From: Candidatus Latescibacterota bacterium
GTDB lineage: Bacteria; Latescibacterota; UBA2968; UBA8231
Length of the DNA: 64,000 nt
Direction: 5' to 3'
NCBI GenBank assembly: GCA_965248265.1
Contig: CBDFJF010000001.1
Location: forward strand, 1,472,001-1,536,000
Both the position numbers and the translations under genes were made by a program. This document shows positions 28,216-31,977 of the stretch, one piece after another (the first letter of the stretch is position 1; every line of letters starts with the position of its first letter). A model generated the notes under the pieces. That model searched no databases and was not told where the DNA came from. It saw only the letters and a program-made list of their open reading frames with translations.

Positions 28216-29292
28216 TTACCTCGCCTCGCCACCTGGCCGTCCGCGCATGGTGCATCGGATGTGTTTGGCAAATCGCTTCTTGTTGGCCTTTTCCATCCTG
28301 CGACTCTGTGAATTCCGGTTGGCTCTAGCGTACTCGCGCTCCAGCTTTCGGTAGTTGACCAGTCGGTTCTGCTCCAACTCCCCCCGTTTGATCGCCGCCT
28401 GCACCTCACAACCCGGCTCCTTTTCGTGCTTGCAGTCATTGAAGCGACACTGATTGGCAAGCTCTTCCACATCCTGAAAACTTTCGCTGAGACCTTCATC
28501 ATCTCCCCACATCTGCAGCTCCCGCAGGCCCGGCGTGTCGATGAGAAGCCCTCCGGACTGCATGAAGATGAGCTCCCGATGCGTGGTCGTGTGCCGGCCC
28601 CGTCCGTCGATACTTCGTATGGCGCCCGTCTCCATCGCTTCAGCGCCGACAAGGCAATTGACCAGCGTCGACTTGCCCACTCCGGACGAACCGACGAATG
28701 CCGTCGTGGTGCCGGGTTCGAGATAGGACGTCAGGCACTCCACATCGCCCAGCTGTGCGCTGACCGCGTGCACGGGAACTCCCATGGCGATGCCCTCCAC
28801 CTCGGAAACGCGTTCCACCACTGTCCCACACAGGTCTGCTTTGTTCAACACGATGACTGGGCGTGCGCCACTGTCCCACGCCAGTGTCACATAGCGCTCC
28901 AACCGCCGCAGGTTGTAGTTGTCGTCCAGGCCGGTCACCAGAAAGAGGGTATCGACGTTGACGGCGATCAGCCGCTCCTTTTCGGCGGGTGTCTTGCTGG
29001 CGAACCCTCGCGCGAATTTGCTCCGTCGCGGCAGAACCGCCCGGATGATTGCCCTGTCGCCAGCTGCAGGCTCCACGGCCACCCAGTCACCAACCGTGGG
29101 AAAATCGCTCTTGGATATAGCGTCGTGTCTGAAGCGACCGGAAACGACGGCTCGTTGCTCCCCCACCTCAGAAAGGATCACGTACACTTCCCGATGCTCG
29201 AGGGCAACTCGAGCTGGCAACAGGCCTGGTTGTGCAAGGGATTCGAAGTTTTCTTGAAAGAACTGTGTCCAGCCCAATGAATCCAGATTCAT
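28216..29292 (-). CDS. rsgA: Ribosome small subunit-dependent GTPase A (long form)
   Basis: VGDWV OB fold, NKAD, GSSGVGKST, GRHTT, DTPG, C.F.DC.H..EPGC zinc finger. Confidence 0.95.
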   Translation of the reverse strand: MNLDSLGWTQFFQENFESLAQPGLLPARVALEHREVYVILSEVGEQRAVVSGRFRHDAISKSDFPTVGDWVAVEPAAGDRAIIRAVLPRRSKFARGFASKTPAEKERLIAVNVDTLFLVTGLDDNYNLRRLERYVTLAWDSGARPVIVLNKADLCGTVVERVSEVEGIAMGVPVHAVSAQLGDVECLTSYLEPGTTTAFVGSSGVGKSTLVNCLVGAEAMETGAIRSIDGRGRHTTTHRELIFMQSGGLLIDTPGLRELQMWGDDEGLSESFQDVEELANQCRFNDCKHEKEPGCEVQAAIKRGELEQNRLVNYRKLEREYARANRNSQSRRMEKANKKRFAKHIRCTMRGRPGGEAR

Positions 29293-29354
29293 GGTTGCGA
29301 CTCCGTTAGAACAGAATGAGGCTGCGGACGAACCCGTACCGCAGCCTAGTACAC

Positions 29355-29381
29355 AAAAAAGCCGTCCCACCGTGGACGGCT
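29355..29381 (-). terminator. Intrinsic terminator (attenuator) in the rsgA leader
   Basis: AGCCGTCC-ACGGTG-GGACGGCT followed by a T run on the minus strand, upstream of the rsgA start. Confidence 0.85.
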
Positions 29382-29409
29382 GATATCTGAATGATCGATT
29401 AGATAGTCG

Positions 29410-29484
29410 TCAGCAGTCTCCAGGACCAGGTACGAGCACGCGAGTGTCGTCGAAGTGTGTGATTGTCATGTCCCTAACCAACAT
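29410..29484 (-). CDS. Putative rsgA leader peptide MLVRDMTITHFDDTRVLVPGPGDC (24 aa)
   Basis: AAGGAGG RBS 6 nt before ATG; lies between a sigma70 promoter and the terminator. Confidence 0.7.
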   Translation of the reverse strand: MLVRDMTITHFDDTRVLVPGPGDC

Positions 29485-29534
29485 GGCTGCCTCCTTTTTG
29501 GTCCTTTCTCTCTGAGTGTGCGCGGTTTAAATCC

Positions 29535-29563
29535 ATCCTACGGTGGCAGGTGAACAGTAGCAA
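29535..29563 (-). promoter_or_regulatory. Sigma70-type promoter for the leader and rsgA
   Basis: TTGCTA-N17-TAGGAT. Confidence 0.6.
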
Positions 29564-29609
29564 GTAAAAAATTGGCATGCTGGGCCCTGGAGTAATCAGC
29601 CTATTGGGA

Positions 29610-29638
29610 TTGACAAAGCCTGCCGTCAAAGTGATACT
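29610..29638 (+). promoter_or_regulatory. Sigma70-type promoter for the small Cys-rich protein
   Basis: TTGACA-N17-GATACT. Confidence 0.6.
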
Positions 29639-29681
29639 GGCAGGTAGAGATTCTGACCCTGTTACGTGGAGCTGAACCACA

Positions 29682-29933
29682 ATGAAGAAGAACACCTTTC
29701 GAACAGCTGCCTTCGGCACTTTCCTCGGTCTGACCTTGTCATTGGGCCTTGGTTTCGGCACGACAATGTTGAGTGCGGCGGTGATTTCTCCGACAGTTGA
29801 GCAGAGCAAGACCTGCGACAAGCCCGAAGTATGTCCCCTGGAAGACAAGGTGGACTGCCCGAAAACTGCCTCCCCCAAGACTACCCAGACTTCAGCGCCC
29901 ACTCAGTGCCCGTACAGTGGTGCCAAGATCTGA
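29682..29933 (+). CDS. Small exported Cys/Pro-rich protein
   Basis: MKK-type signal peptide, 4 Cys, own promoter, GGAG RBS and terminator. Confidence 0.7.
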   Translation: MKKNTFRTAAFGTFLGLTLSLGLGFGTTMLSAAVISPTVEQSKTCDKPEVCPLEDKVDCPKTASPKTTQTSAPTQCPYSGAKI

Positions 29934-29960
29934 CGCAACCAAACAGTCCGTCATCGAGAG

Positions 29961-29991
29961 GCCCCTGGACCGCTGAGTCCGGGGGCTTTTT
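29961..29991 (+). terminator. Intrinsic terminator
   Basis: GCCCCTGGAC-CGCTGA-GTCCGGGGGC followed by TTTTT. Confidence 0.8.
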
Positions 29992-30140
29992 CGTGATCAG
30001 ACGCAGAGACCATGAGGCCCATTGCACTACTTGAGCCAATGAATATTTTTGTAACAGATTCACGAATTTCGACCGATATTATATATACCCCCTGTGCGAC
30101 TGAACGCGGGTGGAGTGTCACTCGATCAGAGGAACGAACC

Positions 30141-31193
30141 ATGGCTCAATATGAAGATCGCGACGGCGGCGGTGACGGCGACGGCGAAGAGGAGGGCGAA
30201 TCTGAGATTCCGGCGATGCAGAAGATCGGTATCCTCTTCGTCGCCTTGGGTCAGGAGACAGCCGGAGAAGTCATGAAGTTCCTCACGGACTATGAGATCG
30301 AGGAGATCACACAGTCCGTCGCGAATCTTAAAAATGTCAGCGTAGAACAGCAGGACAAGGTGATGGAGGAGTTTGAGCAGCACCTCCTCGCCGGAGAATG
30401 GGTCAGCACAGGAGGCATGGACTTCGCTCGTGGCGCTCTGGAACGCGCCGTCGGGCCCCGAAAAGCCCAGGAAATTCTCGATCGCGTTGCCAGCACCGTT
30501 TCTTCCGGTTTCTATATGCTCAAGAACGTCGCCCCGGAGCAGGTCGCCCCGTTCATCTCGCATGAGCATCCCCAGACCATTGGACTGATCCTATCGCAGT
30601 TAGACCCGGCCCAGGGTGCCGGTATTCTGGCGCAGTTGCCCGAGCGCATGCAGTCCGATGTGGCCTACCGTATCGCGACCATGGAGAACATCACTCCAGC
30701 TATCCTCAAGGAAATTGAAGAGGCCCTCGAAGCCTCGCTGCGCGACATCCTCGGCGGTAATCAGGACGTGGGTGGACCGAAGGTGGTCGCGGATATTCTC
30801 AACCTGACCGGTTCGTCGGTGGAAAAGAACGTCCTGGACCAGATGGATGCGCAGGATCCGGAAGTTGCCGAGTCCGTGCGTAACCTCATGTTCACGTTCG
30901 CCGATATCTCCAAACTCACCGACCGCGAACTACAGGTACTATTGCGCGAGGTCGATCAGAAGGATCTCGTCGTCGCGCTCAAAGCAGCCGAGGAGGAGTT
31001 GAAGGACAAGATCCTCGGCAACATGTCCGAGCGCGTGCGCACCTTCATCACTGAGGAGATGGAGTTTCTCGGCCCGATGCGTCTCAGCGAAGTGGAAGAA
31101 GTGCAGCTGCGCATCGTGCAGCAGGTACGTCAGCTCGAAGAGCAGGGCCAGGTAACCATCGTCCGCGGCGACGCCGACGATTCGTTCGTATAA
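30141..31193 (+). CDS. fliG: Flagellar motor switch protein FliG (orphan copy)
   Basis: EHPQ, GGPK, MFTF, NMSER, GPMRLSEVEEVQ; full N, M and C domains. Confidence 0.93.
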   Translation: MAQYEDRDGGGDGDGEEEGESEIPAMQKIGILFVALGQETAGEVMKFLTDYEIEEITQSVANLKNVSVEQQDKVMEEFEQHLLAGEWVSTGGMDFARGALERAVGPRKAQEILDRVASTVSSGFYMLKNVAPEQVAPFISHEHPQTIGLILSQLDPAQGAGILAQLPERMQSDVAYRIATMENITPAILKEIEEALEASLRDILGGNQDVGGPKVVADILNLTGSSVEKNVLDQMDAQDPEVAESVRNLMFTFADISKLTDRELQVLLREVDQKDLVVALKAAEEELKDKILGNMSERVRTFITEEMEFLGPMRLSEVEEVQLRIVQQVRQLEEQGQVTIVRGDADDSFV

Positions 31194-31213: not shown

Positions 31214-31260
31214 CGAGTCCCCTAGCGACTTTCCCTCGCACACCGGAGGGTGTGTGTGAA

Positions 31261-31977
31261 ATGAGAATCCGCCGCTCGCCACTGCCCCTGGCTGCCGGAC
31301 TCATATTCCTGTCCATCCTGGCAGCCTGGCCCAAGGGCGTCGACGATACCTTCACCGACGCCCGCCTGACCATGGTCCGCACCGATCTGGCCGCCCGTGA
31401 CATCGCCGACACCCTGGTGCTGCAGGTGATGGCCGAAATCCCGCGACACGAATTCGTACCTCCGCCCCTCCGGAGCATGGCCTACCAGGATCGCCCCTTG
31501 CCGATCGGCAAGGACCAGACCATTTCGCAACCCTACATAGTCGCCTTCATGACCCAGGCACTCGAACTGGAAGCCGGGGATCGGGTGCTGGAAATCGGTA
31601 CCGGCTCGGGCTACCAGGCGGCCGTGTTGGCGCGACTGGTCGAGCACGTGTACACCATCGAGATAATCCCTTCACTTGGAGATAGCGCCCGCGAGGTACT
31701 ACGACGACGGGGCTACGACAACGTCACCGTTCGCATCGGTGACGGCTACGTCGGCTGGCCGACCGAGGCGCCCTTCGATGCCATAATGGTCACCGCCGCA
31801 CCCGACCACGTGCCGCCAGCCTTGGTGGAGCAATTGGCCGAGGGCGGACACCTGGTGTTACCGGTGGGGGACTATTATCAGGAGTTACTGCGATTGACGA
31901 AGCGCGATGGGAAGATACTTTCCGAATCCCTGTTGCCCGTGCGCTTCGTGCCCATGACGGGACAGGCGCAGGAATAG
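31261..31977 (+). CDS. pcm: Protein-L-isoaspartate O-methyltransferase
   Basis: QTISQPYIVA, VLEIGTGSGYQAA, APFDAI.VTAA, VRFVPM; hydrophobic N-terminus. Confidence 0.95.
   Translation: MRIRRSPLPLAAGLIFLSILAAWPKGVDDTFTDARLTMVRTDLAARDIADTLVLQVMAEIPRHEFVPPPLRSMAYQDRPLPIGKDQTISQPYIVAFMTQALELEAGDRVLEIGTGSGYQAAVLARLVEHVYTIEIIPSLGDSAREVLRRRGYDNVTVRIGDGYVGWPTEAPFDAIMVTAAPDHVPPALVEQLAEGGHLVLPVGDYYQELLRLTKRDGKILSESLLPVRFVPMTGQAQE

Follow-up and report, generated by a model that had tools for sequence, protein, structure and literature searches.

Upstream of rsgA in the 64,000-nucleotide stretch of DNA analysed here (the window), we found a promoter-like site, a strong Shine-Dalgarno sequence, a short upstream open reading frame (uORF) and an intrinsic terminator (T1), in that order, followed by rsgA itself (Table 1). 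We propose, giving the idea about an even chance of being right, that these 270 bases are a ribosome-dependent (leader-peptide) transcription attenuator. All the parts that the initial annotation of this DNA had listed were present where it placed them on the minus strand when the sequence was read directly, and the layout it described is real. The leader parts lie within 200 nt, in functional order and on the same strand as rsgA.

A terminator-containing leader precedes rsgA

The protein encoded downstream of the leader matches the NCBIfam model TIGR00157 with 147.2 bits (cutoff 100), the Pfam domain RsgA_GTPase (PF03193) at 1.7e-47, and the solved RsgA/YjeQ/YloQ structures at 3.6e-35 to 1e-20 (for example, 3.6e-35 for 6h4d and 3e-29 for 1t9h); judged by these matches, the regulated gene is a genuine RsgA/YjeQ GTPase. 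RsgA acts as a checkpoint factor late in 30S assembly. We place the start of the gene at ATG 29292 and not at an upstream in-frame GTG (29370), because tblastn matches begin at query residue 1 on an ATG at 31 of 80 homologue loci. The gene is monocistronic, being convergent with a gene for a Gfo/Idh/MocA oxidoreductase downstream and divergent from a small plus-strand gene upstream. The latter starts at 29682, codes for a signal-peptide protein of 83 codons, and has its own promoter (TTGACA-17-GATACT) and an 11-bp terminator. The divergent intergenic region between it and rsgA is 390 nt long.

Table 1. Coordinates of the leader features and of rsgA in the window.
Feature	Coordinates	Strand	Details
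Promoter candidate, sigma-70-like	29535..29563	-	TTGCTA 29563-29558, 17-nt spacer, TAGGAT 29540-29535; 8/12 consensus
Helix P1, 5' strand (predicted)	29486..29505	-	AGGACCA 29505-29499, GAG(G)CAGC 29493-29486; includes the Shine-Dalgarno sequence
Shine-Dalgarno AAGGAGG	29496-29490	-	5 nt 5' of the uORF ATG at 29484
uORF	29410..29484	-	24 sense codons, stop TGA 29412-29410; MLVRDMTITHFDDTRVLVPGPGDC
Helix P1, 3' strand (predicted)	29422..29441	-	GC(G)UGCUC 29441-29434, UGGUCCU 29428-29422; inside the uORF
Candidate antiterminator, 5' strand	29398..29418	-	GAC, GCUGA, UAUCU, AAU; last two uORF codons, stop and 12 nt
Candidate antiterminator, 3' strand	29375..29392	-	AUU, AGAUA, UCAGC, GUC; overlaps the T1 5' arm
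Terminator T1	29355..29381	-	stem AGCCGTCC/GGACGGCT 29381-29360, loop ACGGTG, then TTTTTT
Hairpin H2	29319..29347	-	9-bp arms AGGCTGCGG 29347-29339 and CCGCAGCCT 29327-29319; 11-nt loop
rsgA	28216..29292	-	358 aa; GGAG 8 nt 5' of ATG 29292

Within 29200-29720 the minus strand has no sigma-70-like match of 8/12 or better apart from the promoter candidate. The minus strand of the 64-kb window has 38 matches this good, a density of about one per 1.7 kb per strand. The candidate is no better than this background, and it is absent from a stricter scan with a threshold of 9/12. The initial annotation had named a promoter for rsgA downstream of the terminator as a finding that would speak against attenuation; a consensus scan for the sigma-70 type found no site of at least 8/12 in the interval from T1 to the rsgA ATG (29355-29293). 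Expression of rsgA therefore appears to require that polymerase reads through T1.

The combination AAGGAGG-N3-9-ATG occurs once on the two strands of the 64-kb window, at the uORF, compared with a chance expectation of 0.69. The 24-residue peptide had no match in an NCBIfam search and contains no RLR or other R/K-x-R/K (+x+) motif; its end has two prolines and two glycines, and no repeat.

The stem of T1 has eight pairs, six of them G-C, closing a 6-nt loop, with a folding energy of -14.6 kcal/mol. It is among the four strong terminator-like sites that a strict scan found in 64 kb, and a loose scan of the window returned 3 sites, compared with 2.4 ± 1.8 in shuffled sequences. No upstream gene can use T1, because it sits in a divergent intergenic region. 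The distance from its T run to the rsgA ATG is 62 nt, 29 of which are taken up by a second hairpin, H2. At -20.7 kcal/mol H2 is the most stable local structure, and there is no clean T run downstream of it (CATTCTGTTCT). The window has 4 perfect 9-bp inverted repeats, no excess over shuffles (3.1 ± 2.1), and the fold of the whole leader is no better than that of shuffled sequences (z = -0.92; 33 of 200 shuffles were at least equal).

Alternative pairings in the leader RNA

The initial annotation had proposed an antiterminator in which GACGAC-TATCT (29411-29401) pairs with AGATA-TCA-GCCGTC (29388-29375). This pairing exists, but it contains an A.C mismatch and is weak (-4.1 kcal/mol, with the mismatch left open). 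A better candidate comes from the minimum-energy fold of the nascent transcript, taken as the RNA up to the T1 loop, in which the 5' arm of T1 is taken up by the final codons of the uORF and its stop through the helices GAC/GUC, GCUGA/UCAGC, UAUCU/AGAUA and AAU/AUU. The energy of this candidate antiterminator is -11.5 kcal/mol as a hairpin, compared with -14.6 for T1, and -13.6 kcal/mol as a duplex. Positioned at the uORF stop codon, a ribosome would cover exactly the 5' strand of the candidate antiterminator. The minimum-energy fold also contains a bipartite helix, P1, made of AGGACCA/UGGUCCU and GAG(G)CAGC/GC(G)UGCUC, which encloses the Shine-Dalgarno sequence; the energy of the P1 segment is -23.2 kcal/mol. 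In the window alone neither pairing is above chance: of 1000 shuffles for each helix, 156 did as well as P1 and 134 as well as the antiterminator.

In an equilibrium model T1 was favoured at every ribosome position (P = 0.78-0.99) and without a ribosome (P = 0.986). Because T1 wins at equilibrium wherever the ribosome is placed, any switch must be kinetic. We discarded equilibrium modelling as a test of the direction of the switch, because with T1 dominant everywhere it did not tell the two directions apart.

Terminator leaders recur upstream of related RsgA genes

A genome scan with the window's RsgA protein gave 80 loci from many phyla, with 39-55% identity. A full-database protein search also found relatives with 73-92% identity, known only as proteins from metagenome sources (P0003-P0008). 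In a FastTree phylogeny rooted on E. coli RsgA, which forms a long branch outside the clade of 80 loci, the sister of the window's RsgA is L013 (support 97), a protein from Latescibacterota that has 53% identity and is the nearest relative among the loci compared at the DNA level. These two group with Chloroflexota, Acidobacteriota and one Planctomycetota sequence. No comparable leader was found at L013 or in the rest of the window's tree clade (Chloroflexota, Acidobacteriota and Planctomycetota), and the Chloroflexota rsgA genes lie 1-3 nt behind an upstream ORF.

To quantify the association between these genes and terminator leaders, we took as controls the remaining genes of these loci and of the window, considering only genes with an upstream gap of 150-900 nt and applying Fisher tests. 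Among genes with a divergent neighbour, a same-strand terminator in the upstream gap was found for 5 of 16 RsgA-clade genes and for none of 60 controls (P = 2.4e-4). A uORF with a Shine-Dalgarno sequence and a terminator within 120 nt was found for 10 of 37 RsgA-clade genes and 1 of 125 controls (P = 1.2e-6), and the single control match is a methyltransferase gene at locus L015 that heads a leader-methyltransferase-rsgA operon. For the window itself the scoring took a spurious 142-codon ORF to be the neighbour, and it counts as having the terminator but not the combination. RsgA-clade genes are significantly enriched for uORF-plus-terminator leaders.

Leaders of different construction were seen in other lineages. 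Five Lactobacillaceae loci have a uORF of only five codons; this ORF and its Shine-Dalgarno sequence are paired to a stretch some 90 nt further downstream, after which comes a terminator. In six cyanobacterial loci there is a uORF of 18-34 codons with a Shine-Dalgarno sequence before it. No protein-kinase or epimerase neighbours were found at any of the 12 Bacillota loci scanned. If the housekeeping rsgA copy of Bacillota is located in the prkC operon, as we take it to be, the lack of such neighbours makes these loci accessory copies. In Lactiplantibacillus plantarum a second copy is named rsgA2 (lp_1687) (PMC7278804). At four loci the next gene in the same operon codes for an uncharacterised kinase of the APH family. 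We considered and rejected the idea that these neighbours are known resistance kinases, as their NCBIfam matches (SrkA-like and homoserine-kinase-like) are weak and far below the cutoffs.

A leader family in Zixibacteria and Ignavibacteria

Thirteen loci of Zixibacteria/Ignavibacteria type, which we define here as a family (L003-L007, L009, L011, L015, L016, L018, L020, L022 and L026), have a common leader with a clear promoter, an extended Shine-Dalgarno sequence GAAAGGAGGCG, a uORF of 18-21 codons and one to three terminators. Right after the first terminator there is a conserved hairpin, CCGCGG...GUCCGCGG. In a comparison of 13 leaders, every uORF had 18-24 codons (chance about 0.18 each). 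The distance from its stop codon to the 5' arm of T1 is 25-27 nt in five of these leaders and 38 nt in L018, and it is 29 nt in the window.

In this family the region of the Shine-Dalgarno sequence and spacer forms a helix with uORF codons ~13-16, which covaries and sequesters the Shine-Dalgarno sequence: 83.7% of cells pair, compared with 28-53% when the partner is slid, and double changes occur in 15 cells, compared with 2-7. The observed value was reached by none of 500 shuffles, and the outcome was unchanged when the window was left out. A covariance model of the helix region, searched against 568 kb, recovered its 13 training sequences and L015 as a new member (E = 0.0016), where the leader heads the methyltransferase-rsgA operon; the only other matches were three weak ones with E > 4 (L068, L060 and L041). 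Given its covarying helix, the leader of these loci is a candidate for a new RNA family.

An antiterminator-like pairing appeared in the nascent folds of four of the seven leaders tested (the window, L003, L009 and L016) and was not seen in those of the other three (L011, L018 and L020). The combined P value for duplexes compared with shuffles is 0.004 for all seven leaders and 0.006 without the window.

The peptides themselves vary. An RLR motif is encoded in 4 of 14 Zixibacteria/Ignavibacteria leaders (L003, L004, L006 and L007), and the peptide of the "TIT...PGD" type, whose conservation the initial annotation had suggested as a check, is in none of the homologue leaders compared. The uORFs of the near-duplicate leaders L004 and L007 differ by four non-synonymous and no synonymous changes, with frame and length kept, and L022 and L026 are similar; the peptide alters where the RNA helix alters. 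We therefore rejected a conserved arrest peptide. Because the substitutions mostly change amino acids while frame and length stay constant, the constraint looks to be on the RNA and on ORF length rather than on peptide sequence.

Relationship of the window's leader to this family

The window's leader resembles this family in having the same gene clade downstream, an identical order of parts, a helix that would sequester the Shine-Dalgarno sequence by pairing into the uORF, a uORF of 18-24 codons, a distance between stop codon and T1 of 25-29 nt (in six leaders including the window; L018, with 38 nt, lies outside this range), and a second GC-rich hairpin directly after T1. It differs in that H2 has no T run, whereas the second hairpin of the other leaders has one, and in that the window's RsgA falls in another clade of the tree.

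The initial annotation had looked to related leaders for conservation of the uORF and stems; covariance models trained on the other leaders alone failed to recognise that of the window. Model R2, which comprises the Shine-Dalgarno sequence, the uORF and helix P1, gave no leader match in the whole window with default filters, and with filters off in the interval 29200-29700 it scored the window's leader at 3.1 bits (E about 1). Model R3, of the conserved hairpin CCGCGG...GUCCGCGG, did not report H2 (29319-29347) at E ≤ 10. H2 does resemble that hairpin, and the loose pattern GCGG-N7-13-GTCCGC has its sole window match at H2, but this pattern was written post hoc with the window's sequence known, and 3.56 matches are expected by chance per window. 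We had first taken homology to the Zixibacteria/Ignavibacteria leaders from the layout and from model R1, which gave the window 37 bits with the window in its training set; since R2 and R3 failed, we regard homology as unproven. We also discarded a MAFFT alignment (A1) of the long leader regions, in which the window's first AGAAAGGA word was misplaced on the Shine-Dalgarno sequence of the others. The window's leader thus shares architecture and gene clade with the family, but not demonstrably ancestry.

A proposed mechanism and its alternatives

We infer that the uORF is translated, that T1 is functional, and that the candidate antiterminator competes with it in the following direction. Transcription would start near 29528, and the nascent RNA would present a very strong Shine-Dalgarno sequence and the 24-codon uORF. 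A ribosome that loads promptly and arrives at the UGA would sit on the 5' strand of the antiterminator, covering the final codons, the stop and some 12 nt of what follows. The T1 5' arm, located 29 nt downstream of the stop, would stay free, T1 would form, and polymerase would halt before rsgA. If instead the ribosome were missing, late, or stalled earlier in the uORF, the antiterminator strand would pair with the T1 5' arm, P1 would close the Shine-Dalgarno sequence with codons 15-20, and polymerase would read into rsgA. Because the off state needs a ribosome at the UGA, and the on state is the one in which the ribosome is lacking, late or stalled, the gene for this 30S-maturation GTPase would be expected to rise when translation initiation or elongation is impaired. 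By analogy with other leaders of this kind, antibiotics or translation stress might induce rsgA.

The main alternatives differ in how much of this they deny. The most sweeping is that a T-run hairpin, a short ORF and a Shine-Dalgarno-like word came together by chance in a 390-nt divergent region and have no regulatory role. The background rates in the window are compatible with this, as the loose terminator scan found 3 sites where shuffles gave 2.4 ± 1.8, AAGGAGG-N3-9-ATG is expected 0.69 times per window, and perfect 9-bp inverted repeats are not in excess. We nevertheless consider chance assembly very improbable: every part lies within 200 nt, in functional order and on the strand of the downstream gene; none of the 60 divergent-neighbour controls has a same-strand upstream terminator; and strong terminator-like sites number only four in 64 kb. 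A terminator that is real but works independently of ribosomes is a more serious candidate, although we still think it unlikely. T1 could then end a separate small-protein or small-RNA unit, or could act as a damper that is constitutive or governed by a trans-acting factor, with rsgA expressed by leaky readthrough or from a promoter invisible to a sigma-70 scan. This would fit with the window's alternative pairings being no better than chance, with the failure of the models of other leaders to find the window's leader, and with H2, the most stable hairpin (-20.7 kcal/mol), having no use in the ribosome model. It fits less well with the 62 nt between the T run and the ATG, which hold no promoter-like match and of which H2 occupies 29, or with a 24-residue peptide that matches no known family; and terminator leaders recur before this gene clade and not before neighbouring control genes, while the conserved distance between stop codon and T1 is hard to explain without ribosomes.

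The remaining alternative keeps the ribosome and reverses the default, as in hflXr and erm leaders: T1 would form unless a drug or the nascent peptide arrests a ribosome within the uORF; only such an arrest would free an antiterminator and turn rsgA on, and without uORF translation the gene would be locked off. Precedent for it comes from the hflXr report (PMC6310831), where mutation of the start codon of the small ORF prevented induction and where RLR is called a hallmark of macrolide-sensing leaders, a motif encoded in 4 of 14 Zixibacteria/Ignavibacteria leaders. The dominance of T1 in the window's leader at equilibrium without a ribosome (P = 0.986) agrees with it too, and the five-codon uORF of the Lactobacillaceae, buried in a long helix, would suit the sensing of arrest in early elongation. 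Against this, the window's uORF has neither RLR nor another +x+ motif; there is no apparent anti-antiterminator, the stretch around the stop codon pairing directly with the T1 5' arm in the nascent fold; and in L003 a ribosome arrested at the RLR would cover, not free, the antiterminator strand. We judge the reversed default to be distinctly unlikely.

If the leader works as we propose, with a completed uORF favouring T1, it would let translation capacity feed back directly on the capacity for ribosome assembly, with no need of a protein regulator. The occurrence of uORF-plus-terminator leaders before the same gene clade in distant phyla, together with the APH-family neighbours, makes it a concrete and testable proposition that some RsgA homologues are induced for stress or rescue instead of serving as housekeeping factors. 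A tentative and somewhat doubtful reading of all the data jointly is that this RsgA subfamily is a stress-inducible 30S accessory factor, a counterpart of HflXr that is present as a second copy in Lactobacillaceae and Bacillaceae, and that uORF-dependent attenuators have repeatedly been placed in control of it, in the lineage of the window as well as in Zixibacteria/Ignavibacteria, Lactobacillaceae and possibly cyanobacteria. What the leaders would sense is how well the cell can begin and complete translation on an extremely strong, briefly exposed Shine-Dalgarno sequence, and a shortage or inhibition of mature 30S subunits would induce the GTPase by which they are matured or rescued.

Comparison with known systems

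In searches of Rfam 15 with the interval 28900-30100 of the window, the best match fell outside the leader and, at 18.7 bits, below its gathering score (60); ten related loci gave no Rfam match at E ≤ 0.1. The initial annotation knew of no characterised attenuator for rsgA, and in the text returned by full-text literature searches of the gene's names with regulation terms we likewise found none, nor any paper uniting rsgA, attenuation and a leader peptide. E. coli rsgA (yjeQ) belongs to the same protein family, but in E. coli K-12 it is 94 nt from the divergent gene orn, and because orn is so close there is no room for such a leader.

The closest parallels in construction are the hflXr/rli80, ABC-F and erm leaders. 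The hflXr/rli80 leader of Listeria has a small ORF with a Shine-Dalgarno sequence, alternative RNA pairings and an intrinsic terminator, and it carries a macrolide-type RLR motif (PMC6310831). The parts in the window are the same, and hflXr, like rsgA, is a gene for a ribosome-associated GTPase. The target there is HflX, which acts on the 50S subunit, whereas here it is a homologue of the 30S factor RsgA; moreover, the default predicted here is readthrough whereas there it is termination, and the window's uORF has no RLR.

In direction, the proposed switch is closer to classical attenuation. In the trp, his and leu attenuators and in the mgtL leader of mgtA, completion of the leader ORF favours the terminator, and an earlier hold-up favours the antiterminator. 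In these systems the decision is kinetic, because the terminator is the more stable hairpin, and in the window it would be so too. The window's uORF differs from the trp, his and leu leaders in having no stretch of regulatory codons that all specify a single amino acid, and it differs from trp in its predicted response to a lack of translation, which leads to termination in the trp attenuator and would lead to readthrough here. Leader-peptide attenuators are known as a kind, and what is probably new is such a leader before rsgA.

A conserved leader family upstream of rsgA

Among the rsgA homologues found in our genome scan (loci numbered L###), 13 from Zixibacteria/Ignavibacteria-type genomes are preceded by members of a conserved leader family (see table). 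These leaders share an extended Shine-Dalgarno sequence, GAAAGGAGGCG, a short upstream ORF (uORF) of 18-21 codons, and a Shine-Dalgarno/uORF helix that covaries. Their terminators are arranged in tandem, and a CCGCGG...GUCCGCGG hairpin is also conserved. Rfam has no entry for this leader, and it might be put forward as an RNA family of its own.

At four of these loci (L003, L015, L009 and L005) there is an extra small ORF, preceded by a strong Shine-Dalgarno, 3' of the terminators and shortly before rsgA, with peptides MLVSVE..., MLDSVEIYEECPR, MSVIE... and MIGDIN.... The residues S-V recur near the start of these second small ORFs, a likeness to the uORFs of Lactobacillaceae and cyanobacteria.

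Features of the window and of the rsgA loci
Feature	Locus	Position	Strand	Remark
Leader family	L003, L004, L005, L006, L007, L009, L011, L016, L018, L020, L022, L026	~160-360 nt upstream of rsgA homologue
Leader family member	L015	1743-1931
Second small ORF	L003	~-135 from rsgA start
Second small ORF	L015	~-148 from rsgA start
Second small ORF	L009	~-103 from rsgA start
Second small ORF	L005	~-103 from rsgA start
APH-family (PF01636) kinase gene	L004	4104-5174
APH-family kinase gene	L007	3885-4964
APH-family kinase gene	L043	2231-3211
APH-family kinase gene	L067	4089-5072
RNA/ribosome-linked gene	L006	4280-5758	as rsgA	3' of rsgA
RNA/ribosome-linked gene	L061	4156-5352	as rsgA	3' of rsgA
RNA/ribosome-linked gene	L011	4706-5662	as rsgA	3' of rsgA
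RNA/ribosome-linked gene	L009	4202-5197	as rsgA	3' of rsgA
RNA/ribosome-linked gene	L042	4114-5382	as rsgA	3' of rsgA
Promoter of 83-codon gene	window	29610-29638		TTGACA-17-GATACT
83-codon gene	window	29682-29987	+	signal-peptide, Cys-containing product of no known family
Terminator of 83-codon gene	window	29960-29987		11 bp
fliG	window	30012-31193	+	all 3 FliG domains
Protein-L-isoaspartate methyltransferase gene	window	31252-31977	+	next after fliG
Cyanobacterial uORF	L025, L031, L061, L065	~-160 to -100 from start
Lactobacillaceae leader	L034	2767-2967
Lactobacillaceae leader	L039	642-842
Lactobacillaceae leader	L052	2708-2908
Lactobacillaceae leader	L057	2781-2981
Lactobacillaceae leader	L059	2763-2963

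Genomic neighbors and relatives

At four loci from two phyla, a same-strand APH-family kinase gene follows the rsgA homologue or overlaps its end; NCBIfam gave these kinases only weak SrkA-like or homoserine-kinase-like matches, below cutoff. The RNA- or ribosome-linked neighbors at five loci are an RtcB ligase (twice), a GNAT acetyltransferase, a TGS-domain Obg-like GTPase, and a DEAD-box helicase. In the window, the 83-codon gene is divergent from the rsgA leader, and the ORFs scanned beside fliG include no further flagellar genes.

The closest relative among the loci compared, L013 (Latescibacterota), has no uORF leader before rsgA. Its region from about -200 to -60 relative to the rsgA start contains a perfect 19-bp inverted repeat (AATGGCTTTGTTTGGAAAT / ATTTCCAAACAAAGCCATT) enclosing an AT-rich, promoter-like stretch; the repeat may be an operator or a mobile-element remnant. 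Members of this bacterial RsgA clade also occur on archaeal MAG contigs (Altiarchaeota and Undinarchaeota; L035, L036 and L071), and these three form a single well-supported group in the tree.

Leaders in cyanobacteria and Lactobacillaceae

Four cyanobacterial rsgA copies have an 18-codon uORF beginning M-T/A-E-S-V with a Shine-Dalgarno ahead of it, and two others (L008 and L010) have a Shine-Dalgarno-preceded uORF of 30-34 codons; no clear intrinsic terminator was seen in any of these six leaders. The Lactobacillaceae copies have uORFs of five codons (MSVIG, MSAVQ, MSVVQ, MSVNN and MSVIR), and a segment about 90 nt downstream pairs with the Shine-Dalgarno and uORF, with a terminator next. Although the downstream gene belongs to the same clade, this design looks different from that of the window's leader.
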